Assembly: GCA_001723845.1 (NCBI GenBank)
Contig: MCBE01000255.1
Location: 1 to 14,220, forward strand
Direction: 5' to 3'
Source of the DNA: Candidatus Altiarchaeales archaeon WOR_SM1_SCG
GTDB taxonomy: Archaea; Altiarchaeota; Altiarchaeia; IMC4; WOR-SM1-SCG
Length of the DNA: 14,220 nucleotides
Shown here: piece after piece, positions 1 through 14,220 of the stretch
How the letters are laid out: each line of letters begins with the position of its first letter
Position numbering within the stretch: the stretch's first letter is position 1
The notes under the pieces: model-generated
The model's database searches: none
What the model saw: the letters and a program-made list of their open reading frames with translations, nothing else
What the model was told of the DNA's origin: nothing
Made by a program: the position numbers and the translations under genes

Positions 1-2
1 TA

Positions 3-347
3 TTTACGCCCCTATCTACTTTAGCCGTTGTGCGATATGGTGCAATCGGCAAATTTACCTCTGCGTTTGAAATCACTGCAATCTGGCACAATTTCAGAGC
101 GGGCTTGAAAAATTATATTATCGGATTTATTATAATTCTCGCGGTTGCATTTTTTGTTGAACTCATCGCGCGCATAATTGCAGTTATTGTTATACTTCCG
201 GGTATCTACGCACCCATGCTCTTAATTGTGTTAGCACCACTTGCAGCGTATATCTGGATGGGCATAGCAACATTTTACCAGATGATGATTGGAATTCGTA
301 TGTTTGCAAATATTTACAATGAGGTTGAGGATAAGAAGGAAAAATAA
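3..347 (+). CDS. C-terminal portion of a polytopic membrane protein (5-prime partial; the reading frame is open to the window edge, and the internal GTG at 30 is only a possible start)
   Basis: There is no in-frame stop between position 3 and the GTG at 30, so the ORF very likely continues upstream of the window. The product is strongly hydrophobic with 3 predicted TM segments. The stretch WHNFRAGLKNYIIGFIIIL followed by hydrophobic helices resembles the C-terminal third of the 306-aa membrane protein at 3990..4910 (GFRFFMKNKLNVFLMWLIIL...). Paralogy is judged by eye only. Confidence 0.5.
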   Translation, partial: FTPLSTLAVVRYGAIGKFTSAFEITAIWHNFRAGLKNYIIGFIIILAVAFFVELIARIIAVIVILPGIYAPMLLIVLAPLAAYIWMGIATFYQMMIGIRMFANIYNEVEDKKEK

Positions 348-368
348 AATTTCAATTTAATTTAAATC

Positions 369-377
369 TTTATAAAT
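369..377 (+). promoter_or_regulatory. TATA-box-like element (TTTATAAAT) upstream of the rpl13-rps9 pair
   Basis: The motif is archaeal TATA-like and lies about 45 to 55 nt upstream of the rpl13 start candidates in an AT-rich intergenic region. It was found by sequence inspection only. Confidence 0.25.
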
Positions 378-424
378 TTATTGATTCAAATTTAATGTTT
401 AAAATACCATAATTGAATTTAAAA

Positions 425-862
425 ATGATAATTAACGCAGAAGGACACATACTTGGAAAATTGTCGGCATTCGCGGCAAAACAGGCACTGCTTGGCGAGG
501 AAGTGATCGTTGTAAATGTAGAAAAAGCAGTAGTTTCTGGAAATCGCGACATGGTGTTTAAAAGCTACATGGACAGGTTAAAGTGGAAAAATAAAATGAA
601 TTACAGGAAAGGTCCGTTTCACCAGAAGCGCCCCGATAAGTTCGTAAGAAAAACAATCAGGGGAATGCTTCCGTTCAAGAAGACGCGGGGCAGGGAGGCA
701 TATAAAAGGATCATGACTTATATCGGGATACCGGAAGATGAAATCAAAAGGGCGCATAATCTTGATATAAAAAATCATGAAATTGAAAATTTGGATAATA
801 TTAGAAAAGAAATTAGAGGTGTTACCGTGGATGAAATTTGTAAATTTATCGGAGGCAAATAG
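425..862 (+). CDS. rpl13: 50S ribosomal protein L13 (uL13)
   Basis: The translation MIINAEGHILGKLSAFAAKQALLGEEVIVVNVEKAVVSGNRD...KGPFHQKRPDKFVRKTIRGMLP is a clear match to archaeal uL13. The ORF track starts at 413 (MNLKM...), but archaeal L13 proteins begin at the MxIDAEG motif, so the ATG at 425 is preferred. The stop is TAG at 860-862. Confidence 0.9.
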   Translation: MIINAEGHILGKLSAFAAKQALLGEEVIVVNVEKAVVSGNRDMVFKSYMDRLKWKNKMNYRKGPFHQKRPDKFVRKTIRGMLPFKKTRGREAYKRIMTYIGIPEDEIKRAHNLDIKNHEIENLDNIRKEIRGVTVDEICKFIGGK

Positions 863-868
863 TAATGA

Positions 869-1285
869 ATGATGAATAAACTCGTACATAAACCCGGAAA
901 AAGAAAGACTGCGGTTGCACGCACAACGATAAGAGAAGGCAGGGGAAATGTTAAAATAAATTCCGTACCGGTTGGTACTTACGGACCGGAAATCGCCAGG
1001 CTTAAAATTATGGAGCCGGTTGTTTTAGCAAGAGAAAACGGTGTTAATTTAGATTCAATAGACATACTTGTAAATGTTTCCGGCGGCGGGGTCATGGGAC
1101 AGGCGGCAGCGGCATCAACATCAATTGCAAGAGCACTTGTGGAATTTGCAGGAGAAGACCTGCTCAGGGCGTATGTAGATTACAACAGGATAATTATTGC
1201 AGGCGACCACAGGCAGACAGAACCCCACAAACCCTCGCAGAGCAGCAAAGGTCCGAGACACAGGAGACAGAAATCATACAGGTAA
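869..1285 (+). CDS. rps9: 30S ribosomal protein S9 (uS9)
   Basis: The N-terminus HKPGKRKTAVARTTIREGRGNVKINSVPV, the internal GGGVMGQAAAASTSIARAL and the canonical C-terminal ...RHRRQKSYR are diagnostic of uS9. The gene follows rpl13 by 6 nt, which is the conserved archaeal L13-S9 order. Confidence 0.92.
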   Translation: MMNKLVHKPGKRKTAVARTTIREGRGNVKINSVPVGTYGPEIARLKIMEPVVLARENGVNLDSIDILVNVSGGGVMGQAAAASTSIARALVEFAGEDLLRAYVDYNRIIIAGDHRQTEPHKPSQSSKGPRHRRQKSYR

Positions 1286-1288
1286 ATC

Positions 1289-1325
1289 GGGGGTTAGGGA
1301 TTGGGGATTAGGGGTTAGGGATTAG
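1289..1325. repeat. G-tract repeat with five G3-5 runs separated by TTA/ATT (GGGGGTTAGGGATTGGGGATTAGGGGTTAGGGATTAG); telomere-like (TTAGGG) and able to form a G-quadruplex
   Basis: This is read directly from the sequence. The 13-mer GGGGTTAGGGATT occurs twice, and the G runs sit in an otherwise roughly 35 percent GC genome, immediately 3-prime of the rps9 stop. Confidence 0.6.
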
Positions 1326-1383
1326 TCCGATACACTGACCACCAAAAAACTAACCACTAAAAATAATAATTTAATTAATAAAA

Positions 1384-1959
1384 ATGAAATTCCAAAAATT
1401 TAAGCACGATTCAAAAATTTTGATTTTATTTGTTTTTGTTTCAGTAGTTCTATTTTCAGGATGCACCGAGGTTAATGAACGGGCAGTAGGAAACTCTTCA
1501 GATGAAACACCGGGGCAAATTGAAGTTAAATGCGGAATTGTTAATGAATTGTGCTGTGAAAATAATACCTGTAATTCTAATCTGTCTTGTGTTGAAAATA
1601 GATGTATGAATTTTAAAGTAGCAAACATAAGCACGGAAAACCCAAAGTATGCCGCAAACCAGCAAATTAAAATTTCAGTAAATATTAATTCAACAAGTGA
1701 TGTAAATAATGTCTCGCTTCGTGTTTACGGGATAACATCAAGGCAAAAAAAGCATTTGATGGATAAAACGATAAATTTGAATTTAACTCAAGGTATAAAC
1801 ATCCGGAATTTTACAGTGAACGCCCCTGCTTGCACTCACGGGTGCGGCGCTAAATATTATCCCGGAGATTACCCCCTGTATGCCGAAATCTTATATAAGG
1901 ACGAAATAAATAATATTTCAATTTCAGATGGAAACCAGATTATGGTGAACCTGTACTGA
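1384..1959 (+). CDS. Secreted Cys-rich glycoprotein or lipoprotein candidate (hypothetical)
   Basis: An N-terminal signal peptide (KILILFVFVSVVLFSG-C) ends in a lipobox-like SGC. It is followed by a 6-Cys knot, CGIVNELCCENNTCNSNLSCVENRC. There are at least seven N-x-S/T sequons (NIS, NST, NVS, NLT, NFT, NIS). No recognisable enzyme motif is present. Confidence 0.6.
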   Translation: MKFQKFKHDSKILILFVFVSVVLFSGCTEVNERAVGNSSDETPGQIEVKCGIVNELCCENNTCNSNLSCVENRCMNFKVANISTENPKYAANQQIKISVNINSTSDVNNVSLRVYGITSRQKKHLMDKTINLNLTQGINIRNFTVNAPACTHGCGAKYYPGDYPLYAEILYKDEINNISISDGNQIMVNLY

Positions 1960-2034
1960 AACTAATAATTTTAAATAAATTATGGGCAGGGCATAAATGC
2001 TGTTCCGTACGATTCATGCCGGATGCCGTTTGAC

Positions 2035-2070
2035 GGAATTTATGAAAAATTCCGGGGGGAACTTTTTTTT
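2035..2070 (+). terminator. Hairpin (GGAATTT-ATGAA-AAATTCC), then a G6 run, then a T8 tract; an archaeal oligo-T terminator candidate
   Basis: A perfect 7-bp inverted repeat at 2035-2053 is followed by GGGGGGAAC and TTTTTTTT at 2063-2070. A second perfect hairpin, GCGACA-GGAAAT-TGTCGC, lies at 2077-2094. Archaeal termination relies on oligo-T tracts. The site is about 100 nt downstream of the 1384..1959 CDS. Confidence 0.35.
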
Positions 2071-2175
2071 GTGCTTGCGACAGGAAATTGTCGCTTAAAA
2101 GAGTTTCCGGTATTACATCTATTTAAAGAATTAAACAATAAATAATTAATAGACAATTTATTTATATTTTATACC

Positions 2176-3804
2176 ATGCCTGAAAAAATGAAAATTAATA
2201 CAATAAATGAGCCGCTCTGCCAGGGAGATATAATCTACTTTGTTTTAACGGACAGATTTCGCGACGGGCTCAAAGGAAATAATAACGGCGGGAATTTTAA
2301 TGCCGCACCTTCGGAACCAGAAAACCCGGGAAAATATCACGGCGGGGATTTAAAGGGAATTATTGATTCCATACCTTATCTTTCAAAATTAGGTATTACT
2401 GCCCTGTGGATTACGCCCGTGTATTTGAACATAGGCGAATGCGGGGATGGGGACAGTTATCACGGTTACTGGGCGCTTGATTTTGATAAAATTGACCCGC
2501 ATCTTCTCCCCAAAGGTTCCGATCTCGGTAAAAAGAACCTGCGCGAGTTAAGTGATACACTCCACAAACACGGGATAAAATTAATCCTTGACATGGTCGT
2601 TAACCATACGGGGTATCATACCGGTAATTACAAAGATTACCATAAAAAAGGCGATTTTAAACCGGGTTCCGAATGGTTTGGAAAAAATCCCGGATTAAGC
2701 ACCGGGGGACTTCCAGATATTGATTTCGGTCCTGATGGAAAAGAAGAGAAACCGACCCAGGTGCACTCGGATGTAAGAGATTTCTTTGTCAACAATATAA
2801 TTGACTGGATTGAGGACTCAGGGATAGACGCCATAAGAATGGATACCATAAGATATGTTGAAGATGCTTTCTGGTATTATTTTAAAAGTTATGTTCGCGG
2901 GAAATACAGAAATGTTGCATTGATAGGCGAGGACCTTGGAGGGGATATTGATGAAGTTGCAAAATACCAGAAACAAATGGACATAGATTGCATGTTTGAT
3001 TTTGAATTAACATACAATATACTTGATGTGATGATGTGCGATCATGATAGGTTTAATGACAAAAAAGAACTAAACTTTGGAATGATGTGCCTTGCAAGCC
3101 CGAGGATTCATGAATGGGAAGAACATAAGGGAATACTGGATGTTGACACCAAAAAGTACACGAATGCAAATCGTCTTGTTACGGTGCTTGACAACCACGA
3201 CCTTGAGAAAAGAATTATGAGCTGGGGTTTAACGAAATCCTGCGGCAACAAGGAGTGGGCAGCACGGCTCGTTAGATATGTTTTAGCATTCCAGTTTACA
3301 ACCAGGGGAATTCCATGTATATACTACGGGACGGAACTATGTCTTGAAGGTTCAAGGGAATCCGGGGGCGATGCTGATCTGCGAAAGGATTTCCCGTGGG
3401 AACTGATAGATAAATCAACCCGTGAACCTGGAAAGTATATAGACCGGATTAAATGTGATATGTATTACTTTGTGAAACAGCTGATACAATTAAGAAAAAC
3501 ACACGATTCATTAAAATACGGGATACTTTTCACATTATATGTTGATAGGGATTTCTATGCATACATGAGAGAATGGCGAGGTGAGGTGGTAATAACGGTC
3601 CTGAATAATAAATGCACGGATGATAAAAGCACCGTAGAAATAGATATCAAAAGCAACATAAATATTCCGTCCAGGATAAAGAATATTCTCAATGATAGAG
3701 TCCTGAGGGATGCAATTGAAAAAAGATATAAAACAAAATGTTCAAACGGTAAACTGTCAGTTTCTCTTAAAGGGAAAACTGCCCGCATCCTTACGCTGTT
3801 TTGA
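2176..3804 (+). CDS. GH13-family alpha-amylase, cyclomaltodextrinase or neopullulanase-like glycoside hydrolase (cytoplasmic, no signal peptide)
   Basis: The GH13 conserved regions are present: DRFRDG; GGDLKGIIDSIPYLSKLGITALWITPVY; region II GIKLILDMVVNHTG; region III DAIRMDTIRYV (nucleophile Asp); GEDLGG (acid/base Glu); region IV VLDNHDL. An alternative start is the ATG at 2188 (MKINTINE), with TATA-like TTTATATTTTATA at about 2160-2172. Confidence 0.88.
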   Translation: MPEKMKINTINEPLCQGDIIYFVLTDRFRDGLKGNNNGGNFNAAPSEPENPGKYHGGDLKGIIDSIPYLSKLGITALWITPVYLNIGECGDGDSYHGYWALDFDKIDPHLLPKGSDLGKKNLRELSDTLHKHGIKLILDMVVNHTGYHTGNYKDYHKKGDFKPGSEWFGKNPGLSTGGLPDIDFGPDGKEEKPTQVHSDVRDFFVNNIIDWIEDSGIDAIRMDTIRYVEDAFWYYFKSYVRGKYRNVALIGEDLGGDIDEVAKYQKQMDIDCMFDFELTYNILDVMMCDHDRFNDKKELNFGMMCLASPRIHEWEEHKGILDVDTKKYTNANRLVTVLDNHDLEKRIMSWGLTKSCGNKEWAARLVRYVLAFQFTTRGIPCIYYGTELCLEGSRESGGDADLRKDFPWELIDKSTREPGKYIDRIKCDMYYFVKQLIQLRKTHDSLKYGILFTLYVDRDFYAYMREWRGEVVITVLNNKCTDDKSTVEIDIKSNINIPSRIKNILNDRVLRDAIEKRYKTKCSNGKLSVSLKGKTARILTLF

Positions 3805-3989
3805 ATTAGAACAGAGTAATTTTAATTTGCTTAAACTTTGCTTCCTGTAATCGGTAACGGAAGAGGCACTGGAATATACTGAAAACCGGCTTCGCGCGGG
3901 TATGTGCCTGCGCTAAATAAAGCAAATAAAATTTTAAATAGATTAATTTAAATTAAAGATTAATTAATTATTATTGCCGAGGTATTGAA

Positions 3990-4910
3990 ATGACTGAAAA
4001 TTTAACCGATATTTTAAAGGAAGGATTTGAATTATGGAAAAATAATCCGGTACTTGGAATCCCGCCGCTTTTGGGCTGGATAATACAGTACGGCTTGTGG
4101 TTTATAGCAGGTATTATTATAATGTTTGCGGTACTGGGAGTCGGTCTTGGTGCAGTATCGCTTTCGGAAAATATTGAAAACATTAACGCTTTAATCCAGT
4201 CGCTGGGTGCTGCTGCCGTATTTATATTCCTGGTTGTTGCGTTTTTAATTGTTATAACTCTTTTAATTGACGCATTCTTTAAAGCAGGGCTTATCGGAAT
4301 GTCAAAAGAAGCGATTGAAACAGGAAAAACGGAAATTTCAACTATGGTTGAGTGCGGCAAAAGAAAATTTATACCTGTATTTTTTGCAAATTTAATAATT
4401 TTGATATTATCCCTGCTTCCGTTAATAATTGCGGGAATAATATTTTTAATATTAATTGCTTCGGGCGCGGCATCAATTGAGAGTTTCGGGGATGCGGAAA
4501 TCGTAAAATATACATTTTTATTTCTGCTGCTGCTTGTGATATTTCTGCTCTGGATTTTATACGCGATCGTAATAGATATAATATTTTCAGTCGCTATTTA
4601 TGCCGTGGTCATATCAGACACGGGAGCGGTTGAAGGTTTAAGGTTGGGCTTTAGATTTTTCATGAAAAACAAACTTAATGTCTTTTTGATGTGGCTTATA
4701 ATTTTATGTATATCTTTTGTTTTCGGAAGCATCTATTACATGATACAGGTGTTTCTCAGTTTCATACCTATTATCGGTGCAATTGTCGGTTTTGTCCTCT
4801 GGGTTGTCTTTTATGTTTTCATGGCAGCAGTATTCACCCCTATTACTGCCCTCTGGTGGAGCAGGATTTACATGGACGGGGGGGAAATTAACAAAAAATT
4901 AACAATTTAA
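3990..4910 (+). CDS. Polytopic integral membrane protein of unknown function (roughly 6-7 TM; resembles GP-PDE-membrane/DUF-type archaeal membrane proteins)
   Basis: The 306-aa ORF is very hydrophobic, with repeated 20-25-aa helices and short charged loops. Its C-terminal region is similar to the partial ORF at the window start. It has no catalytic motifs. Confidence 0.6.
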   Translation: MTENLTDILKEGFELWKNNPVLGIPPLLGWIIQYGLWFIAGIIIMFAVLGVGLGAVSLSENIENINALIQSLGAAAVFIFLVVAFLIVITLLIDAFFKAGLIGMSKEAIETGKTEISTMVECGKRKFIPVFFANLIILILSLLPLIIAGIIFLILIASGAASIESFGDAEIVKYTFLFLLLLVIFLLWILYAIVIDIIFSVAIYAVVISDTGAVEGLRLGFRFFMKNKLNVFLMWLIILCISFVFGSIYYMIQVFLSFIPIIGAIVGFVLWVVFYVFMAAVFTPITALWWSRIYMDGGEINKKLTI

Positions 4911-5002
4911 ATGTTAATCTTAATTTTAATTTAAATTCATAAAAATTTTAATTCATAAATAAAAATAACCAATAATAATCAATAATAACCACTAAAATCA
5001 AA

Positions 5003-5779
5003 ATGTTTGCAGAATTATTAACCCTTGTAATTTTTGGAATTTTCTTTTTATTTTTCGCACTGCCCATAATTACTTTAATTGTAACGAGATTTGTAAAAAT
5101 AATTGTTCAATACGAGCGAGGCATGTTGTTTGCAGTGGGCAAATTCGCAAGTATTCTTGAGCCGGGCGTAAATTTTGTAATCCCTTTCTATCACCGGCTT
5201 GAAAAAATTGATATGAGAGTCACGACGATTGATGTGCCTAAACAGGAAGTTATGAGTAAAGACAATGTTCCGGTAAACATTAATGCAGTGCTGTACTTCA
5301 GGGTGTTTGACCCGGAAAAGGCAATACTTAATGTTGAGGACTACACTTATGCGATTTCAAAGTACGCGCAGACATCGCTTAGAAATGTTACGGGGGAGGC
5401 GACGCTTGATGAAATGCTCTCGGAGCGGCAGCAGATTGCAGAGAAATTAAGAAAGATTGTTGACGAGGCAACAGACCAGTGGGGTATAAAGGTTATTGCA
5501 CTTGAACTCCAGGACATTGAACTGCCTGAAGGGATGAAAAGAACAATGGCAAAACAGGCGGAAGCAGAAAGGGAAAAAAGAGCGGCAATAATTAAAGCGG
5601 AAGGGGAAGTCGCCGCATCAAAAAATCTTTCGGATGCGGCAACGATTCTAAGAGGCGTTAAAGGCGCACTGCACCTGCGAACACTGCATTCATTAAATGA
5701 CATGTCATCAGACCAGAGCAATACAATTGTATTTACAGTGCCGCTTGAAGTTTTGCGTGCTCTTGAGGATGTTGATTAA
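5003..5779 (+). CDS. SPFH/Band-7 (stomatin/prohibitin-like) protein with an N-terminal TM anchor
   Basis: An N-terminal hydrophobic helix (LLTLVIFGIFFLFFALPIITLIV) is followed by an SPFH core (QYERGMLFAVGKF...VPKQEVMSKDNVPVNINAVLYFRV...LRNVTGEATLDEMLSERQQIAEKL...) and a coiled-coil AKQAEAEREKRAAIIKAEGE segment, which is typical of stomatin-like proteins. Confidence 0.9.
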   Translation: MFAELLTLVIFGIFFLFFALPIITLIVTRFVKIIVQYERGMLFAVGKFASILEPGVNFVIPFYHRLEKIDMRVTTIDVPKQEVMSKDNVPVNINAVLYFRVFDPEKAILNVEDYTYAISKYAQTSLRNVTGEATLDEMLSERQQIAEKLRKIVDEATDQWGIKVIALELQDIELPEGMKRTMAKQAEAEREKRAAIIKAEGEVAASKNLSDAATILRGVKGALHLRTLHSLNDMSSDQSNTIVFTVPLEVLRALEDVD

Positions 5780-5834
5780 AAATAATATAAAAATTTAAAA
5801 TTAAATTCGATATTTAAAAAATATAAAATTTAAA

Positions 5835-6263
5835 ATGCAGGGCAATATAACGGGATTCAACTTGGAAGATTCGGAGCAGGCAAAAAAAGGAGCGATATTT
5901 TTTGCAGTGGGAATCGTATTCCTCGTTATTGCAGGCACATTCGGGTTTTCAAACCCAACCCTCGCTATTGTTTTAGCAATTTTATGTGCAATTTCTTTAA
6001 CAATCGGTATGTATTTACTAAGCCCGGACAATAAAGACAGTAAAAATAATAAAATGGAATCCGCTGGCTTTGAACAGGATGTACTTTTAAAACCCTCCTG
6101 TAAAAGTACCAAAGACAGGCACACGGGAGGAATTATATTTGCATTCGGGATATTTATATTATTATCCTCGCCGTTATGGGCGCAATTCACGGAAATGCTG
6201 ATTATTACACTTGTAACCGGGGGAGTGATTATGGCTTATGGTCTTTACAGGATTGTCAATTAA
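5835..6263 (+). CDS. Small 4-TM membrane protein with an internal 2-TM duplication, encoded between the two SPFH paralogs
   Basis: The first half (GAIFFAVGIVFLVIAGTFG...LAIVLAILCAISLTIGMYLL) mirrors the second half (GGIIFAFGIFILLSSPLWA...LIITLVTGGVIMAYGLYRI). It is not NfeD-like: there is no OB-fold or ClpP-like domain. The gene sits in the same orientation, 55 nt after the first SPFH gene and 44 nt before the second. Confidence 0.55.
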   Translation: MQGNITGFNLEDSEQAKKGAIFFAVGIVFLVIAGTFGFSNPTLAIVLAILCAISLTIGMYLLSPDNKDSKNNKMESAGFEQDVLLKPSCKSTKDRHTGGIIFAFGIFILLSSPLWAQFTEMLIITLVTGGVIMAYGLYRIVN

Positions 6264-6307
6264 AATCACAAAATTAAAATTTCAATTAAATTAAAATAAA
6301 ATTCAAA

Positions 6308-7039
6308 ATGCCGTTAAAAATAATAAACCAGTACGAAAAAGGGGTTTTGTTTTCCCTTGGTAAATTCAAGGGTCTGCGGGACCCGGGATTGAATACCTAT
6401 GTCCCGATCCTGCAGAAAATTGTGAAAATAGACATAAGAGTAAAGACCGTGGACATCCCGAAACAGGAGGTTATGACAAGGGATAATGTGCCTGTAAAAA
6501 TAAACGCCGTGATTTACTTTAAAATAATTGATCCTGAAAAGGCGGTACTTAATGTCAGGGATGTCATTTATGCAACATCAAAATACGGGCAGCTTGCACT
6601 CCGCAATGTTGTCGGGCAGACAACGCTTGATGAATTGCTTTCCGAAAGACAGCAGATTGCAGACCAGTTGAGAAACATCGTTGACGAAGCAACCGACCCG
6701 TGGGGTGTTGATGTGACAATGATTGAATTACAGGATATTGAACTCCCTGAAACCATGAAAAGAACCATGGCAAAACAGGCGGAAGCGGAAAGGGAAAGAA
6801 GGGCGGTTATAATAAACTCCGAGGGCGAGGTAATTGCCGCAGAAAATATTGCACAGGCAGCCAAAACACTTTACGCAACGCCGGGCGCACTGCACCTGAG
6901 AACACTGCACTCGGTAAATGACCTTTCATCAGATAGATCGCAGACAATCGTGTATGCAATACCTATAGAAATCCTGCGGGTACTTGAGCGGCTCGGTGAT
7001 ATGCTTGAAAAGGAAAACAAAAGAAGAAAAGTGAAATAA
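6308..7039 (+). CDS. SPFH/Band-7 (stomatin-like) paralog that lacks the N-terminal TM anchor
   Basis: It is about 60 percent identical by eye to the 5003..5779 product across the SPFH core (VPKQEVMTRDNVPVKINAVIYFKI...LRNVVGQTTLDELLSERQQIADQL...MKRTMAKQAEAERERRAVIINSEGE). It begins directly at the YEKGVLF motif. The upstream sequence is full of stops, so there is no hidden TM exon. Confidence 0.88.
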   Translation: MPLKIINQYEKGVLFSLGKFKGLRDPGLNTYVPILQKIVKIDIRVKTVDIPKQEVMTRDNVPVKINAVIYFKIIDPEKAVLNVRDVIYATSKYGQLALRNVVGQTTLDELLSERQQIADQLRNIVDEATDPWGVDVTMIELQDIELPETMKRTMAKQAEAERERRAVIINSEGEVIAAENIAQAAKTLYATPGALHLRTLHSVNDLSSDRSQTIVYAIPIEILRVLERLGDMLEKENKRRKVK

Positions 7040-7101
7040 ATAAGTGAATTTAAATTTAAATTTAATTCTTAATTCTAATTTATAAAATCAAAAACAGATT
7101 A

Positions 7102-7146
7102 ATTACATTAAATAAAATTACATTAAATAAAAATATATTAAATAAA
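7102..7146. repeat. Three tandem 15-bp direct repeats (ATTACATTAAATAAA x2, then a degenerate AATATATTAAATAAA copy) abutting the start codon of the aminotransferase gene
   Basis: Read directly from the sequence. The array ends 2 nt before the ATG at 7149. It may be a promoter or operator element, or simply AT-rich slippage. Confidence 0.45.
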
Positions 7147-7148
7147 AA

Positions 7149-8222
7149 ATGGATAAACCGAAATTATTTACCGTCGGACCGACTTATGTAAACGAAGATG
7201 TGAGAGAGGAAATGAAGCGTCAAATGTTTTCCCACAGGAGTTCTGATTATGTGAAACTTCACAGTGAATTAATTGAAAAATTAAGGGAATTTTTAAACAC
7301 TGAAAATGAAATTTTTATTTACACATCATCATCAACAGGATGTATGGAGTCCGGTGTAAGGAATATGATATCAGATAGCGGAACAGGGCTTAGTACAATC
7401 TGCGGTGCTTTTGGTAAAAGATTCGGTGAAATTATTGAGCAAAACGGGAGAAAACTCGTTGAAAGTGAAGTTGAATGGGGCGAGGCAAACAGGGGCGAGC
7501 AGCTTGATGAAGTGCTTTCTAAAAATCCGGGTGTTGAAGTTGTGACAATCACGCACTGCGAGACATCAACCGGTCTTTTAAATCCTCTTGATGAGTTATG
7601 CAAGGTTGCAAAAGAGCATGATGTTTTAACAATGGTTGATACGGTAAGTTCAATGTCCGGGACAAGGATTGAAATAGACAAGCTTGGTATTGACTTCTGT
7701 TTTTTCGGCGTCCAGAAATGCTTTTCGGTGCCGCCGGGACTTGCAATTGCAGTGGTAAGTAAAAAAGCAATGGAAAAGGCAGAAACCGTAAAGAACAGGG
7801 GGCATTATTTTGATTTTTTGAATTTGAAAAAATACAACGACAAAAACATGATTCCATACACGCCGCCGATTCCCCAGATGTTTGGTCTTTCAAAGCAGCT
7901 GGATATGATTATTGATGAAGGCGCAGGAAATAGATTTTACAGGCACAGCAAGATTTCCGCAAGAGTGAGAAACGGCTGCAAGGATTTAGGATTCGGCGTT
8001 TTTCCCGATGAGAAATACGCGGCTCCGACACTCAGCTGCATTTCAAACCCCCTGGAAGTTGACCTTGCCGAAATGAATTCTAAAATGAAAGAGCGAGGGT
8101 TTATTCTTGCTTCAGGTTACGGTAAAATCAAGGATACGACATTCCGTATCGGGAACATGGGTAATGTTACACTTGATGATGTTAACGAGATGCTTGAGAA
8201 TCTGGAAGAGGTTGTCGGGTAA
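7149..8222 (+). CDS. Class V pyridoxal-phosphate-dependent aminotransferase (AGXT/SgaA family; archaeal phosphoserine or serine-glyoxylate aminotransferase-like)
   Basis: The N-terminus LFTVGPTYVNEDVREEM and the PLP-lysine context FFGVQKCFSVPPG (the GSQK...PPG signature of class V aminotransferases) are present. The length is 357 aa. The closing motif is TFRIGNMGNV. Confidence 0.85.
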   Translation: MDKPKLFTVGPTYVNEDVREEMKRQMFSHRSSDYVKLHSELIEKLREFLNTENEIFIYTSSSTGCMESGVRNMISDSGTGLSTICGAFGKRFGEIIEQNGRKLVESEVEWGEANRGEQLDEVLSKNPGVEVVTITHCETSTGLLNPLDELCKVAKEHDVLTMVDTVSSMSGTRIEIDKLGIDFCFFGVQKCFSVPPGLAIAVVSKKAMEKAETVKNRGHYFDFLNLKKYNDKNMIPYTPPIPQMFGLSKQLDMIIDEGAGNRFYRHSKISARVRNGCKDLGFGVFPDEKYAAPTLSCISNPLEVDLAEMNSKMKERGFILASGYGKIKDTTFRIGNMGNVTLDDVNEMLENLEEVVG

Positions 8223-8229
8223 AAATTAA

Positions 8230-8400
8230 TGGGACCGCCGAGATTTGAACTCGGGTTACCAGCTTTTCGTTTCACAGTCAGGCAGTTTAAGCCATCTCAA
8301 CAAAATGGGCTACGCTTTGCTCCGCGACATTTCCGCGTATAACTTGGAAATGAGGAGAATCCCCGAGCTGGAAGGATGAACCAAGCTACCCTACGGTCCC
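8230..8400 (-). tRNA. tRNA gene interrupted by a roughly 97-nt intron. Isotype is unresolved; the weak best guess is anticodon CGG (Pro) if the loop is CUCGGG just before the intron
   Basis: On the minus strand the 5-prime acceptor GGGACCG at 8400-8394 pairs perfectly with the 3-prime CGGTCCC. The D arm is GGGT/AGCTTGGTTC/ATCC. The T arm is CCGAG-TTCAAAT-CTCGG, followed by discriminator A. The intervening roughly 100 nt separate CCAGCT from AGCTGG, which are exact reverse complements and form an anticodon-stem-like helix. CCA is not encoded. Confidence 0.75.
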
Positions 8401-8445
8401 GTAATTATTGATTAGAATTGAAGTTTAATATCAATTTTATTATTT

Positions 8446-11400
8446 TCATTTTATCGCTTCTTCAACACTTAAACTTTTAAAGCCCTTGCTGTTTGCTAAA
8501 TTTCTTTTATTTGAATCTTCTGCAAGAACCACCTTTGCACCCACCTGCATTGCCAGTGCAACAGTTTCATCGCCGACTTCTTCTAAATATTTCCGTCCTT
8601 TTGCATTTAACTCTACCTCCTTTATCCTGCCGTCTTTTTTTATCTCCCCCATAATCGCTTTATAGGTTGCAGGCGTCACATAAATTTTATTGAATTTACC
8701 AATTGCCCTGCCTAATTTACCTTCATTTTTTGCCTTTTCTAAAAATACCATATCTGCGACCGCCTTTTTCTTTCCAAGCAGCAATAATAATAAAATTAAA
8801 ATTATGATTAAAACCGGAACCCAGTACCACCAGGACATGCCCTTTACGGAAATTTCTGCCTTTTCACTTTCAATATAACCTTTTTTACTTGCCGAAGCGT
8901 CAATTTTCCCTGCTTGATTTTCAATAAATTGAATATTACCCTTATCATCTGTTGTAAATGTTCGCCCGTCAGAAGTGATAACCGATGCGCCTGAAACAGT
9001 ATTGCCTTTCTCGTCAGTAACATTGCAGGTTATTATTTCACCGGTTTCAACATTTTCAGGGCAATTAATTATTAATTTTTGTGCCGGGCAGGTACCGCAA
9101 TCTTCACTACAGGTCTCGCAGGTTTCATCGCCCTCGCATTTTCCGTCACCGCAGACAATTTTCGGTGGACATGTACCGCAATCAATTTCACAATTTCCAC
9201 AGGTATCATCACCTTCACACTTCCCGTCGCCGCAAACCGCAGGACATGCACCGCAATCAATTTCGCAATTTGAGCAGTTTTCATCACCCTCACATATTCC
9301 GTCACCGCATACTGCAGGACATGCACCGCAATCAATTTCGCAGTTTGAGCAGTTTTCATCACCTTCACATATTCCGTCACCGCAAACCGCAGGACATGCA
9401 CCGCAATCCGATTCGCAATTTTCGCAGATCTCGTTGCCTTCACATACGCCGTTGCCGCATACCTCGGTCGGGATTGATGGTTTTGGTTTACCATTGGATT
9501 TTCCTGGTTTTTTGCATGCTTTAATCTCTCCGTCACAATCTTCGTCTATATTATTTCCACAGATTTCAGTTGAATTTGGATTAACACCCGGGTTTGTGTC
9601 GTTGCAATCAACCGGGGTATCACAAAGTGTAAAGTTATCGGAATCGGAATCAATTGGTGCATTCACACACGCATCTGAATTTTCATCACATGAATCGTTT
9701 GTGCACGAAATATTATCATCACAGGTTGGCGGTGTTCCCGCCCGGCAGCCGGTAAGGTTGCATACTTCTGCGCCATTGCACCATAAACCGTCATCGCAGG
9801 CAGAATCATCCGGTGTGTAAACGCAGCTTCCGCCGCTGCAGGTATCACCGGTGCATGCCACCTCATCATCACAGGCATTACATCCGGATTTTACTGTCTG
9901 TGTACCTGTTACCGAATAAGTGCAGGAGGTTTCCGAGCAATAATAATTTCTGTACTCCTGCTCCTGGCAGGTGCATACCTGGTTTTCGTCACAGCAATCG
10001 TAGAGTGCGCTGACATTATACCAGCCGTCTTGACTATTGCAGTTTGTACAAGAAGTGCATCCGCAGTCGGTATCCGAACCCGAGCAATACGGAGTATAGA
10101 TGCAATTTCCGCCGCTGCAGGTATCGGATGTGCATGAATTTCCATCATCACACGCATTGCAGCCGGATTTTACTGTCTGTGTACCGGTCACCGAATAAGT
10201 GCAGGAGTTTCCGGAGCAATAATAATCCCTGTGCTCCTGCTCCTGGCAGGTGCATTTCTGGCTTCCGTTGCAACAATCGTAGGGCGCGCTGATATTATAC
10301 CAGCCGTCCTGGCTGTTGCAGTTTGTACAGGAAGTGCATCCGCAGTCGGTATCCGAACCCGAGCAATACGGAGTATAGATGCAATTTCCGCCGCTGCAGG
10401 TATCGGATGTGCATGAATTTCCATCATCACACGCATTGCAATTATATTTCATTACCCGTGTATCGTTTTCCGTATAATTACATGAAAATTCAGAGCATTG
10501 CGTTCCGGAGCAGTAATAATCCCTGTATGTTTGATTCCGGCATGTGCAGTTCTGGTTTGCGTCACAGCAAGCGTAAGGATCGCTGCTGTTATACCACCCG
10601 TCGGAATTGTTGCAGTCATCACAGTTTGTGCAAGGATGAGTACAGGGATTCCCGTCAGGCGTATCATTCCATACGGTTGCACTATTACATGTGTTGTTAT
10701 CCCCAAAACTTGAGCAGCCGCACTCACTATCATCACAATTTATATCGTCAACGGTATTTGAACAGAATATATTGTAATTTACCTGATTATTGCCTGAACA
10801 CATATCTATATTCAAGCCGTATTCGTTATATCTTGCGATATTATTGATTATGTTGTTGTTGTCCGAATTATATAAGTAAATTCCGGAATAATTATTTAAA
10901 TTTACACAATTATTTATGATGCCGTTATTCCATGAATAGTATAAACAAATTCCCTCGTAATTTTCATTGACCGTGTTGTTGATTATGTTTGAATTATCTT
11001 CATTATCAAATACAATTCCGCATCTATCGCACTCACCACCCACCAGGCCGTTATAAAACACCCTGTTGTTCGTGATATTGTTATAACTCTCATAAATCCC
11101 ATTATCATAAATCTCATTTCCACCATAGATTACTATCCCGCTGCAAAAATTAGAACTTACATTGTTATTATCAATCGTGTTGTAACTTGAACTATCTAAA
11201 TAAATTCCGGTACTAAAATTATAAATATTAAAATTATTTATGATAATATTATTTTTTCCATAAGCATATATCCCGTTTCCGGTGGTGTCTCCGGTTATAC
11301 TAAATCCATTGCCGTCAATTGTGATATTATCCGCTCCAACCGTAAAGCATGTGCCGTTTGAATTTAAATTACAATTCAGTGTGCAGGATTCCATTATTGT

Positions 11401-13308
11401 TTCCCCGCAGGTGTAATTATAGGTTCCGTTGTCGCAGCCGCAATGTGCTGGCGTGCAGGAATAACTGCATCCTGCTGTTCCGGCGTCATTCCAGCCATAA
11501 GTTGTGTCGCAGGTATTATCGTCACCGGCATTATTATTTCCTTCGTTGTGAATATCGGTATTTATGATACCGTTAAAGCAAGCAGTGTTTTCATTAAGCG
11601 TATTATCGTCGGATGAATACAAACCAATGCCTTGAAGGTGGTTATACATGGCAGTGTTATTGGTTATATTATTGCGGTGCGATTCGTGCAATCTGATACC
11701 GTGACAATCTCCGGCAACATCATTTAAATTTGCAGTGTTGCCATAAATCAAATTATCATCCGAGTAGAGAAGATCAATACCTACGCCTTCCGGTGCGGAT
11801 GGTCCGTGATTCTCATTCGCGATGTTTTTTACAATTGTATTATTATTTGCATAATATAAATAAATACCTTTCCTATCGTTTGAACTTGCATTATTTCCGG
11901 TAACATTGTTGTAATATGATTGATTTAGGCAGATGCCGTAATAATTGTACAATGCTGTGTTGTTGATTATATTGTTGTATTGTTCACCGAATTTCAGGTA
12001 GACCCCGTATAACTGATTTAAATTTACCGTGTTATTGATTATGTCATTGTAATTATTCCCTGTAACTGATCCCAGATGTATTCCTATGTTGTTTTCTAAA
12101 ACATCGTTGCCGATTATTCGGTTATACCCACTATACTGTGTCAGATAAATACCGTTATTGGTGTTATTATAGATTTTGTTATCAATTAGAGTGTTATTGT
12201 TTGAGCCAGATAATTCAATCCCATTATCTGAGTTGTTATTTACTGTGTTGTCATCTAATGTGTTGCTTAAGGAATAATATAAATAAATCCCATGATTAGT
12301 GTTGTTATTCGCTGTGTTGGATACCAGAGTGTTGTTGTTTGAGGATGACTCTACCCTAATTCCGTTAAAATTATTTGAGCTTGCAGTGTTGTTGATTACT
12401 TTATTGTTTGAGGAATCAAGTATGCGAATTCCGTCATAATTATTTGAATCCGCCGTGTTGTTTGAAACAGTGTTATTTAAGGAAGAATATAAATAAATAC
12501 CGTACCCGTTGGAACTTGCCGTGTTGTCTGTAACAGTGTTATTTTTTGAAATATACATATAAATTCCTGTCTGTTCACTGCCGTTTATTGTATTATTATT
12601 TATTTTACTATTATTCACCGCATTTAAAGAAATTCCATAAGAGAAATTATAAATATTAAAATTTTTTATTGTTACATTATTTCTTCCGTCTGCATAAATC
12701 CCGTCTCCGGTGGCATCCCCGGTTATATTGAATCCCGCACCATCAATTGTGATATCATCCGCTCCAAGGGTAAAGCAATCGCCGGTTGAATTTAAATTAC
12801 AATTCATTACGCAGGATTCCATCACCATTTCCCCGCAGGTGTAATTACGGGTTCCGGTGTCGCAGCCGCACAGTGCAGGTACACAGGAATAACTGCACCC
12901 TCTTGCTCCGGTATCGTTCCAGCCAAATACCGTGTCACAAGTATTATTGTCGCCGGCATTATCGTCAGAATCATTAATATCCCAACCATTACCGCAGATT
13001 AAATTTGAACTTAAATTATTATTATTTGAATTTGAAGCAAAGTAAACGCCGTAGTCAGTATTGTTTACCAGGGTATTATTTGTTAAATTATTAGATCCCG
13101 AATTATACAGGAAAATTCCATAAGCTGCACCATTGTCCCTGTCGCAGTAATTATCATTTGCCGTGTTATTAACCAGAGCATTGTTTGAGGAAGAATATAG
13201 GCGAATTCCATAAGAATTGCTGGATGTGCCGCAGTAATTATCATTTGCTGTGTTTCTGGTCAGGTCATTGTAGTGTGAATCATATAAATAAATCACGTAT
13301 CCTCTCAA
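8446..13308 (-). CDS. Giant (1620 aa) N- and C-rich cell-surface protein that appears 5-prime truncated. It contains parallel beta-helix (PbH1/NosD-like) repeats, Cys-rich tandem modules and an Ig-like domain, then a single C-terminal TM helix and a 109-aa cytoplasmic tail
   Basis: A continuous 4.86-kb ORF spans the locus. Dozens of roughly 22-aa NNTxxxNxxxGIxLyxSxNNxI repeats make up the beta-helix part. Two copies of a CSYSC..CGCD..TCGE...ITIDG.GF.ITGD module are present, then 3 x 93-aa CSGGNCIYTPYCSGSDTDCGCTSC... repeats and 5 x 25-aa CPAVCGDGICEGDENCSNCEIDCGA repeats. The TM helix is MSWWYWVPVLIIILILLLLLL, followed by GKKK. N-x-S/T sequons are very frequent, consistent with archaeal N-glycosylation. 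There is no signal peptide. The ORF begins on a TTG inside a repeat unit, with an in-frame stop 13 codons upstream and no ATG. Confidence 0.85.
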   Translation of the reverse strand: MRGYVIYLYDSHYNDLTRNTANDNYCGTSSNSYGIRLYSSSNNALVNNTANDNYCDRDNGAAYGIFLYNSGSNNLTNNTLVNNTDYGVYFASNSNNNNLSSNLICGNGWDINDSDDNAGDNNTCDTVFGWNDTGARGCSYSCVPALCGCDTGTRNYTCGEMVMESCVMNCNLNSTGDCFTLGADDITIDGAGFNITGDATGDGIYADGRNNVTIKNFNIYNFSYGISLNAVNNSKINNNTINGSEQTGIYMYISKNNTVTDNTASSNGYGIYLYSSLNNTVSNNTADSNNYDGIRILDSSNNKVINNTASSNNFNGIRVESSSNNNTLVSNTANNNTNHGIYLYYSLSNTLDDNTVNNNSDNGIELSGSNNNTLIDNKIYNNTNNGIYLTQYSGYNRIIGNDVLENNIGIHLGSVTGNNYNDIINNTVNLNQLYGVYLKFGEQYNNIINNTALYNYYGICLNQSYYNNVTGNNASSNDRKGIYLYYANNNTIVKNIANENHGPSAPEGVGIDLLYSDDNLIYGNTANLNDVAGDCHGIRLHESHRNNITNNTAMYNHLQGIGLYSSDDNTLNENTACFNGIINTDIHNEGNNNAGDDNTCDTTYGWNDAGTAGCSYSCTPAHCGCDNGTYNYTCGETIMESCTLNCNLNSNGTCFTVGADNITIDGNGFSITGDTTGNGIYAYGKNNIIINNFNIYNFSTGIYLDSSSYNTIDNNNVSSNFCSGIVIYGGNEIYDNGIYESYNNITNNRVFYNGLVGGECDRCGIVFDNEDNSNIINNTVNENYEGICLYYSWNNGIINNCVNLNNYSGIYLYNSDNNNIINNIARYNEYGLNIDMCSGNNQVNYNIFCSNTVDDINCDDSECGCSSFGDNNTCNSATVWNDTPDGNPCTHPCTNCDDCNNSDGWYNSSDPYACCDANQNCTCRNQTYRDYYCSGTQCSEFSCNYTENDTRVMKYNCNACDDGNSCTSDTCSGGNCIYTPYCSGSDTDCGCTSCTNCNSQDGWYNISAPYDCCNGSQKCTCQEQEHRDYYCSGNSCTYSVTGTQTVKSGCNACDDGNSCTSDTCSGGNCIYTPYCSGSDTDCGCTSCTNCNSQDGWYNVSALYDCCDENQVCTCQEQEYRNYYCSETSCTYSVTGTQTVKSGCNACDDEVACTGDTCSGGSCVYTPDDSACDDGLWCNGAEVCNLTGCRAGTPPTCDDNISCTNDSCDENSDACVNAPIDSDSDNFTLCDTPVDCNDTNPGVNPNSTEICGNNIDEDCDGEIKACKKPGKSNGKPKPSIPTEVCGNGVCEGNEICENCESDCGACPAVCGDGICEGDENCSNCEIDCGACPAVCGDGICEGDENCSNCEIDCGACPAVCGDGKCEGDDTCGNCEIDCGTCPPKIVCGDGKCEGDETCETCSEDCGTCPAQKLIINCPENVETGEIITCNVTDEKGNTVSGASVITSDGRTFTTDDKGNIQFIENQAGKIDASASKKGYIESEKAEISVKGMSWWYWVPVLIIILILLLLLLGKKKAVADMVFLEKAKNEGKLGRAIGKFNKIYVTPATYKAIMGEIKKDGRIKEVELNAKGRKYLEEVGDETVALAMQVGAKVVLAEDSNKRNLANSKGFKSLSVEEAIK
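9089..9463. repeat. Five tandem 75-bp repeats (coding 25-aa CxxCGDGxCEGDExCxNCExDCGxCP modules) inside the giant gene
   Basis: The units at 9164-9238, 9239-9313, 9314-9388 and 9389-9463 are near-identical and share the core GCAGGACATGCACCGCAATCAATTTCGCA...; an outer copy at about 9089-9163 is more diverged. Confidence 0.85.
9810..10690. repeat. Three tandem 279-bp repeats (93-aa Cys-rich modules) inside the giant gene
   Basis: CCGGATTTTACTGTCTGTGTACC recurs at 9884 and 10163. A 60-bp block is identical at 10101-10160 and 10380-10439. The third copy, from about 10440, is more diverged. Confidence 0.8.
11185..11529. repeat. Internal duplicated module, copy 2 (roughly 345 bp; the Cys-knot plus first beta-helix turns), homologous to 12613..12957
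   Basis: The protein segments NAGDDNTCDTTYGWNDAGTAGCSYSCTPAHCGCDNGTYNYTCGETIMESCTLNCNLNSNGTCFTVGADNITIDGNGFSITGD and NAGDNNTCDTVFGWNDTGARGCSYSCVPALCGCDTGTRNYTCGEMVMESCVMNCNLNSTGDCFTLGADDITIDGAGFNITGD match. The DNA offset is 1428 bp, with about 80 percent nucleotide identity by eye. Confidence 0.75.
12613..12957. repeat. Internal duplicated module, copy 1, homologous to 11185..11529
   Basis: The evidence is the same as for copy 2. The spurious plus-strand ORFs 12786..12977 and 11349..11567 in the six-frame track encode near-identical peptides, which confirms duplication at the DNA level. Confidence 0.75.
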
Positions 13309-13416
13309 AAAATAGAGTGTCTCTAATCTGCCACATATCTCTCCTCAATTAATTAAAAACACACCTAATTATCCACATTGCTAAAAATCTATTATATCCA
13401 ATGAGACACGAGATAC

Positions 13417-13560
13417 TCAATCCTTAAGTATAATAAGATAAACTCTCTTGCCCATATACTCTTTTGGACAAATCACTTTTGCTCCGCTTCCGAATGGGGT
13501 GACCTTTCTCTCGATAAAACCGAGAACCCCACTAACTTTTATTTCTGTTTGTTCTTTCAT
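13417..13560 (-). CDS. Small 47-aa protein with a swapped-hairpin (AbrB/SpoVT-like) signature that resembles the archaeal putative transposon-encoded protein family. It is absent from the ORF track because it is under 60 aa
   Basis: Translating the minus strand by hand from ATG (13560-13558) to TGA (13419-13417) gives MKEQTEIKVSGVLGFIERKVTPFGSGAKVICPKEYMGKRVYLIILKD. The pattern V-x-P-F-G-x-G-A-x-V-x-x-P-K-E-x-x-G-K-x-V, followed by a hydrophobic strand, is typical of small DNA-binding beta-barrel proteins found next to archaeal transposase genes. Confidence 0.5.
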   Translation of the reverse strand: MKEQTEIKVSGVLGFIERKVTPFGSGAKVICPKEYMGKRVYLIILKD

Positions 13561-13658
13561 AAGTATTTTTTTCATTGTATTTATTTGGGCCATATATTTT
13601 CAGTGGTTTATAGTATATATTAAATATATACTTAAATAAGTAATTCTAATATTATAAT

Positions 13659-14220
13659 ATGAAACAAAAAGATCTGTTGGAAAATTTGGATATTGATCTC
13701 AAGTGCATCGCAGACAAGAAAATAAAGGCGACAATATTGCTCCTTTTCAGTAGGGTAGAGGATTTATCTTCAACTGTTCACAAGCAGCAACAAGAAATTC
13801 AGCGGTTGCGGGACGAGAATAATAGATTAAAAGGCGAACAAGGAAAACCAAACATCAAACCAAATAAAAAGAAGTTGTCTATAGATTTCTCCTCTGAAAA
13901 AGAACGCAAAAAAGCAGACAACCTCCCAAAACGAAAAAGAGATACAAAAAAGGACAAAATTAAAATAGACCGAAAAGAAAAATGCAAGATAAATAGAACT
14001 ATGCTGCCTCCTGATGCCATATTTAGCAGGTATGCAACCGTAGTTGTTCAAGATTTAAAAATAGTAACGGATAACATTGAATTTCAAAAAGAGGTGTGGT
14101 ATTCACCATCGCAAAACAGGACTTACATGGCGGATCTCCCACCGGGTTATAAAAAAGAATATGGTCCCGGAGTCAAAACAATAGCAATTAATATGAAAAA
14201 TGCCTGCAATATGTCCGAGC
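13659..14220 (+). CDS. Transposase, 3-prime partial (runs off the window); IS66-like features
   Basis: The reading frame is open from the ATG at 13659 to the window end (187 codons, verified by hand with no stops). An N-terminal leucine-zipper-like coiled coil (EIQRLRDENNRLKGEQ) is followed by a Lys/Arg-rich linker (KPNIKPNKKKLS...KRKRDTKKDKIK) and then a ...ADLPPGYKKEYGPGVKTIAI segment that resembles the conserved GPGL region of IS66-family TnpC. No CxxC zinc finger is seen, so the family assignment is tentative. Confidence 0.45.
   Translation, partial: MKQKDLLENLDIDLKCIADKKIKATILLLFSRVEDLSSTVHKQQQEIQRLRDENNRLKGEQGKPNIKPNKKKLSIDFSSEKERKKADNLPKRKRDTKKDKIKIDRKEKCKINRTMLPPDAIFSRYATVVVQDLKIVTDNIEFQKEVWYSPSQNRTYMADLPPGYKKEYGPGVKTIAINMKNACNMSE

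Follow-up and report, generated by a model that had tools for sequence, protein, structure and literature searches.

We analysed a 14,220-nucleotide stretch (the window) of contig MCBE01000255.1, positions 1 to 14,220 of the forward strand, from Candidatus Altiarchaeales archaeon WOR_SM1_SCG. Altiarchaeales genomes have been described from White Oak River sediments (PMC4975002). The ribosomal protein S9 encoded in the window had its best matches in Candidatus Altiarchaeota/Altiarchaeales MAGs, at 55-63% identity, which points to an Altiarchaeota-like lineage. The subject is the C-terminal tail of a giant open reading frame (ORF) on the minus strand. A first-pass annotation of the sequence had described it as a cytoplasmic tail on an otherwise extracellular protein, with the signature of the C-terminal half of a small PIN-like domain of the DUF5615/Mut7-C kind.

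The giant reading frame and its membrane topology

The giant ORF matches the Pfam families NosD (E 8.6e-69) and Beta_helix (E 4.4e-57). Its parts are as follows.

8446-13308, minus strand: whole open frame, 1620 residues, with NosD/right-handed beta-helix repeats, cysteine-rich modules and an anchor cassette (from Pfam and the upstream sequence)
9085-9459, minus strand: five CG[DN]GxCEGxExCxxCxxDCGxCP cysteine repeats, residues 1284-1408, part of the anchor cassette (regular expression on the translation; aligned with relatives P0005 and P0009)
8845-9033, minus strand: membrane-proximal immunoglobulin-like (Ig-like; CarboxypepD_reg-like) ectodomain, residues 1426-1488, part of the anchor cassette (Pfam PF13620, E 1.4e-5, under the curated cutoff; conserved with P0005 and P0009)
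8773-8832, minus strand: single transmembrane helix WWYWVPVLIIILILLLLLLG, residues 1493-1512 (W1493-G1512), flanked by a Trp/Tyr belt on the outer side and by KKK on the inner side (Kyte-Doolittle)
8449-8772, minus strand: predicted PIN-fold cytoplasmic domain, residues 1513-1620 (KKK to K1620)
8446-8448, minus strand: stop codon TGA

The span singled out in the first-pass annotation, 8449-8838 (M1491 to K1620), the peptide it quoted and the GDETVALAMQVGAKVVLAED block were all confirmed in the translation. W1493-G1512 is the only hydrophobic segment in the 1620 residues (Kyte-Doolittle above 1.6). It is followed by KKK (1513-1515) and 105 further residues to K1620 (nucleotides 8449-8451), giving a tail of 108 residues. 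Composition differs sharply across this helix, with 8.6% Cys, 16.8% Asn and 2.0% Lys in the ectodomain and 0% Cys and 17.4% Lys in the tail, as would be expected if the two lie on opposite sides of the membrane. Full-length relatives P0002, P0005 and P0011 (proteins are numbered P, loci L) have signal peptides at their N-termini, as in type I membrane proteins, whose C-terminal end lies inside, so that the proposed cytoplasmic location behind one transmembrane helix holds. The description of the giant protein as extracellular stands in part: its composition and the signal peptides of its full-length relatives point to export, but the window copy is probably 5'-truncated and carries no signal peptide itself. 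That the tail both lies on the cytoplasmic side and has the PIN fold described below is, in our estimate, highly probable. Altiarchaeales may be double-membraned, in which case the 'surface' might include the space between the membranes.

Conservation extends beyond the tail: in BLASTP comparisons of the last 384 residues with P0005 and P0009, the conserved unit comprised the CG[DN]GxCEGxE...DCGxCP repeats, the Ig-like domain, the transmembrane helix, KKK and the PIN domain. The passengers above it vary, being beta-helix repeats in the window, DUF11-like repeats in P0003 and on L009, other domains in P0002 and P0011, and a multi-pass DUF1616-like membrane protein in P0009. The bearers of the cassette are a small set of uncultured archaea from sediment and groundwater, which place it under very different ectodomains.

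Fold and relatives of the tail

Structure prediction of the tail with AlphaFold2 and a 15-sequence alignment gave a folded PIN-like domain, with a predicted local distance difference test (pLDDT) score of 92.8 and a predicted template modelling score of 0.83 for the best model, and pLDDT above 91 in five of five models; prediction from the single tail sequence was poor (pLDDT 58). The predicted order of elements, in tail positions, is b1(2-6)-a-a-b2(27-32)-a-b3(50-52)-a-a-b4(81-83)-a-b5(99-101)-a. This predicted structure has the three-layer alpha/beta/alpha arrangement and central parallel five-stranded sheet of the PIN superfamily, and it is superposable on solved PIN domains. A Foldseek search of the PDB placed PIN domains on top (1y82, VapC4 5h4h, Shigella VapC, Utp24, Nob1 and PAE2754), with TM-scores up to 0.73. 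On the predicted structure, then, the tail is a complete, divergent, minimal PIN-fold domain, joined to the transmembrane helix without a linker. All 108 residues belong to the predicted fold and they do not correspond to a C-terminal half, as had been suggested, because strand 1 (K-K-A-V-A) comes right after the helix and D1519 occupies the place of the first catalytic Asp.

At the sequence level, PDC-S70 is the sole family that the tails matched recurrently. The PADLOC PDC-S70 model PDLC05068 was matched by 10 of 15 tails (best E 2.9e-7), and further tails matched other PDC-S70 models. PDC-S70 has been described as a single-gene PIN nuclease, found mostly in archaea, and is a PADLOC defence candidate awaiting validation (PMC12988326). 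Its models, about 125 positions long, are consistent with a small single-domain protein, whereas the tail is always membrane-tethered, and the match spans the C-terminal two thirds of the domain. The match of the window tail is weak (E 3e-4, 52 residues), and the tail family is set apart by strictly invariant residues of its own, Y31, Y37, G59 and Q76 (Y1543, Y1549, G1571 and Q1588 in the window). Individual tails also gave sub-threshold Pfam matches to PIN_4 (18.4 bits, where the cutoff is 21.9), PIN_6 and PIN-TPR-GreABC. The identification with DUF5615/Mut7-C was not borne out, since no tail matched PF18480 or PF01927 (15 plus 10 tails scanned) and the tail profile, when compared by hhalign with a true DUF5615 protein, gave a probability of 0.2%. 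That protein, used as a negative control, is encoded by a stand-alone gene (L008 2701-3075, minus strand; Pfam 3.9e-23) lying 1.4 kb from the tail-bearing gene on the same contig.

The tail alone retrieved 15 proteins, with E-values down to 2e-42, in an exhaustive HMMER search of 1.84 billion representative proteins, and it defines a small, very rare family without a Pfam or NCBIfam model. A profile word search and a scan of metagenome contigs added P0016-P0018 and loci L006-L012, bringing the total to 19 tail copies. In a word-indexed search of 5.8 billion proteins, the tail alone found the same locus only (P0001, 101 residues, 99% identical), its profile found 8 short entries, and a query with the stalk and transmembrane cassette found no match. 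A pattern scan of GTDB species genomes and IMG/VR viral contigs revealed no tail relatives, and within the window the tail is single-copy.

The tail copies each directly follow a transmembrane helix. In P0002, P0003, P0004, P0005, P0007, P0009, P0011 and P0015 (481-1226 residues) the tail is the extreme C-terminus, after a hydrophobic helix and a K/R cluster, and contig L009 encodes a new tail-bearing protein of at least 727 residues. Genuine short members, P0014 (133 residues, three assemblies) and P0017 (211 residues), have a short ectodomain, a transmembrane helix and the tail. The fusion is in frame in independent assemblies, namely L001, L006 and L007 (99-100% identity, with the tails of L006 and L007 100% identical to that of the window) and, for relatives, L008-L012. 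The ratio of nonsynonymous to synonymous substitution rates (dN/dS) in the tail is 0.09 at dS 0.94 (L009 versus L094). The tail is a real domain under purifying selection.

Three further arrangements were seen among the relatives. P0002 (876 residues, with a signal peptide; L012 3264-5894, also on L010 and L011) carries two tandem tail copies after its transmembrane helix, each beginning KKKK, in three assemblies. In P0009 (1226 residues) about 25 extra residues lie between helix and tail, and the N-terminal region is long and rich in E, K and R. At L094 501-926 and L093 187-576 there are remnant or frameshifted ORFs of helix plus tail without a proper start: the L094 frame opens upstream and includes the transmembrane helix but has no start codon, and L093 carries a frameshift when compared with the short P0017-type proteins. 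Such ORFs suggest that a piece of the gene holding the anchor cassette sometimes stays behind, yet the L094 tail is the one that gave the dN/dS of 0.09 against L009.

Among prokaryotic nucleases, PIN domains are some of the most common, and they occur as soluble toxins and RNA-processing enzymes, rarely anchored to the membrane at their N-terminus. Against the minimal archaeal and VapC-type members (SSO1118, 2mdt; the Pyrococcus furiosus protein 1y82; Pyrococcus horikoshii VapC4, 5h4h; bacterial VapCs) the tail shows 8-24% identity. Unlike them, it is joined covalently to a transmembrane helix and forms the C-terminal end of a large surface protein, its loci have no VapB-type antitoxin gene, and its Glu and fourth acidic positions are unconserved. 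A VapBC type II toxin-antitoxin module was rejected, as the tail is always fused after a transmembrane helix and no neighbour resembles an antitoxin. The PIN.COG4956/YacL-type group is defined, in the 2017 PIN classification, by four N-terminal transmembrane helices, a PIN domain and a TRAM domain (PMC5499597), and it was the one membrane-linked group that a term search of that text brought up. Such proteins (TTHA0540, 3ix7) have no ectodomain, whereas the giant protein combines an ectodomain of up to 1,500 residues, a single transmembrane helix and a C-terminal PIN domain without TRAM; membership was rejected on these grounds. A C-terminal PIN domain under a large surface-protein anchor was not found in Pfam, NCBIfam, the same classification or full-text literature searches on PIN domains in membrane or surface proteins. 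The tail is not categorically new, because the PIN fold is known.

Proposed activity and its alternatives

Conservation was counted over the 19 aligned tails. Tail positions were mapped onto the canonical PIN active site by motif and topology, and the strand 4 block alone by hhalign. The positions concerned are listed below.

Position 7, first Asp: D1519, 8752-8754, minus strand; acidic in 15/15
Position 33, hydroxyl after strand 2: T1545, minus strand; Thr or Ser in 17/18
Position 39, canonical Glu: A1551, 8656-8658, minus strand; Glu in 7/18, Lys in 8/18, Ala in the window
Position 68, third position: D1580, 8566-8571 (with E1581), minus strand; Asp in 18/19
Position 69, beside position 68: E1581, minus strand; acidic in 18/19
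Position 84, Thr of T-x-D: A1596, 8515-8523 (A1596-E1597-D1598), minus strand; Thr or Ser in 17/19, Ala in the window
Position 86, fourth position: D1598, minus strand; Asp or Glu in 7/19, Asn in 8/19, Asp in the window

Judged by this alignment, the family keeps two carboxylates (D1519 and D1580) nearly invariant plus a movable third, with at least one acidic residue at positions 85-87 in 16 of the 19 tails. The window tail holds three of the four canonical carboxylates.

We favour the reading that the tail is a membrane-tethered PIN module, likely a metal-dependent ribonuclease or RNA binder and possibly just a dimerising anchor, and put its probability at roughly 0.55. The tail would form the inner end of a C-terminal anchor cassette on a type I surface protein, in the order cysteine repeats, Ig-like domain, transmembrane helix, KKK and PIN. 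Strand 1 would start at the membrane face, and because of this the carboxylate pocket at the C-terminal ends of the strands would point to the cytoplasm. The pocket appears to retain D1519, T1545, D1580/E1581 and, in the window copy, D1598, and the domain would most likely bind a divalent metal and work as a membrane-tethered ribonuclease or RNA-binding module. PIN domains are usually dimers; the module here is probably dimeric too, and the tandem copies of P0002 would form a pseudo-dimer. A metal-binding, RNA-acting module is favoured because the best-conserved non-structural residues cluster at the pocket. Nuclease or RNA-binding activity as the conserved function of the whole family is a more tentative proposal, to which we give slightly less than even odds.

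Several observations weigh against this reading. The structure of the tail is a prediction. No tail reached a curated Pfam or NCBIfam threshold, and the window tail had no match at all; PDB sequence searches with the tail profile and the best member returned chance matches only, and hhalign of the tail profile against single PIN sequences gave nothing significant. One of these comparisons, with a Shigella VapC sequence in which D7, E42, D98 and E119 lie at the catalytic positions, was likewise not significant and aligned the strand 4 block alone. In the active site, the canonical Glu and the fourth position are the poorly conserved ones in the list above, and the strictly invariant tail residues are not the catalytic ones. 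As to the window copy, a signal peptide or hydrophobic N-terminus was looked for and none was found, and the truncated copy might not be made or exported. Finally, the genes beside the tail change from locus to locus, the window having tRNA-Pro and an aminotransferase there and other loci having pelota, a HEAT-repeat protein or an Rce1-like protease, and no conserved neighbour hinting at a substrate, partner, antitoxin or immunity function was found across the loci examined. The PIN classification codes comparable families as mixing active and inactive members (PMC5499597).

The alternative that survives best, though we consider it unlikely on balance, is a non-catalytic one, in which nuclease activity has been lost and the PIN fold survives only as a compact plug, which dimerises or docks onto a cytoplasmic partner and so holds the protein in the membrane. 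This would fit the two of four canonical acidic positions that are unconserved and the Ala of the window protein at the Glu position; the tail and extracellular stalk move together, as a single cassette, beneath variable passengers, as an anchor would, and the tandem duplication in P0002 suits an obligate dimer or pseudo-dimer. Archaeal C-terminal anchors of the PGF-CTERM/archaeosortase type consist of a transmembrane helix plus a short basic tail. The cassette resembles them in its conserved C-terminal helix and basic flank beneath variable surface passengers, but an anchor of this type was rejected because no PGF motif precedes the helix and 105 residues, folded in the prediction, follow KKK. 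What speaks against a mere plug is that, after the invariant structural residues, the best-conserved ones (D7, T33, D68, E69 and T84) sit at the active-site end of the PIN fold and that a third carboxylate is present in 16 of the 19 copies, neither of which a plug would need. There is also no conserved gene nearby that could encode its partner. An active tail would tie RNA metabolism directly to the cell surface in a lineage of archaea not yet cultured, and an inactive one would represent a new kind of archaeal surface-protein anchor. In either case the family could be added to domain databases and tested by simple biochemistry.

By analogy with IRE1 or abortive-infection systems, the tail could instead be a receptor-coupled effector, with clustering of the ectodomains or binding of a ligand or virus dimerising the PIN domains and turning on RNA cleavage. 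IRE1, a type I membrane protein, has its sensor in the lumen and its RNase in the cytosol. The giant protein shares with it the type I topology, a large outside domain, one transmembrane helix and a nuclease-fold domain inside, but the likeness is architectural, since the RNase of IRE1, a kinase-coupled KEN domain, is no homologue of the tail. Variable, sensor-like ectodomains over a conserved helix and enzyme-like cytoplasmic domain would suit such an effector, as would the nearest sequence family, PDC-S70, being a candidate antiviral PIN nuclease enriched in archaea; with no linker between helix and strand 1, movements of the helix could reach the PIN domain. However, the proposal comes from architecture alone, PDC-S70 is an experimentally unvalidated candidate, the catalytic set is incomplete in many members, and the loci lie outside recognisable defence islands, none of which were seen around them. 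We therefore consider this effector model improbable, and a surface-receptor-coupled ribonuclease triggered by a virus, another cell or a surface, built as an IRE1 or abortive-infection analogue from a PDC-S70-like defence nuclease, quite unlikely.

A role like that of the CdiA/Rhs polymorphic toxins, in which a giant beta-helical exoprotein delivers a C-terminal nuclease toxin into neighbouring cells, is very improbable. A giant NosD/beta-helix protein does end in a nuclease fold here, but the polarity is reversed, with the C-terminal domain conserved while the N-terminal regions vary; the helix and its KKK flank put the tail inside the producing cell; and instead of a conserved immunity gene, tRNA-Pro or genes for pelota, the HEAT protein or the Rce1-like protease lie downstream. 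Membership in this class was rejected on the reversed conservation and the lack of a conserved downstream gene.

The chance that the tail is an artefact, whether a separate small gene, a fusion created by a frameshift or by assembly, or a remnant in decay, is negligible, and for the tail family an artefact is refuted: although gene callers report 101-residue 'proteins' (P0001, P0006 and P0008), an in-frame ATG (M1520) follows KKK and the window ORF is itself 5'-truncated, there are no indels relative to L001, the tail is in frame in 12 of 13 further tail-bearing contigs (L002-L005, L006-L012 and L094, the exception L093 being frameshifted just upstream of the helix), all short matches carry the helix in frame upstream, and the low dN/dS argues for selection. 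This evidence also disposed of frameshift fusion as a candidate. No free-standing tail ORF was found among the relatives, P0001, P0006 and P0008 being fragments with the helix in frame upstream; P0001 is a gene-caller fragment of the same fusion, because contig L001 starts within the transmembrane helix and its alignment to the window is free of indels. M1520 was likewise rejected as an internal start: most relatives have Leu there, so it is not a conserved start.

Neighbouring genes and minor observations

The frame of the giant ORF opens right after a TGA at 13345-13347 and has no ATG start; the earliest codon that could serve as one is a TTG inside a beta-helix repeat unit, and stops are abundant in the sequence upstream. 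Directly upstream, at 13420-13593 on the minus strand, lies a DUF2080 gene for a 'putative transposon-encoded protein' (Pfam E 1.9e-17), followed by a divergent coiled-coil ORF (13659-14220, plus strand) that matches no Pfam family and runs off the window. Because of the start within a repeat, the missing signal peptide and the adjoining DUF2080 gene, we suspect that the window gene was 5'-truncated, probably through a mobile element or rearrangement.

On the near-identical contig L006 (positions 1-500), the frame breaks in the cysteine-rich repeats where the window (about 9900-10400) stays open, which may reflect a repeat-driven assembly error or real variation. In P0012 (181 residues) a tail fragment precedes the Ig-like domain and the transmembrane helix; this is probably a chimeric or rearranged contig.

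On the other side of the giant gene, 45 nucleotides past its stop codon, is a tRNA-Pro(CGG) (8230-8400, minus strand) with a 98-nucleotide intron in the anticodon loop; it was detected only with aragorn -i and is missed by default ARAGORN and by Rfam. Further along, two SPFH/Band 7 genes (5003-5779 and 6308-7039, plus strand) flank a 142-residue ORF (5835-6263) without family assignment. Upstream of this pair are genes for a DUF7847 membrane protein, an alpha-amylase-family enzyme and the ribosomal proteins L13 and S9.

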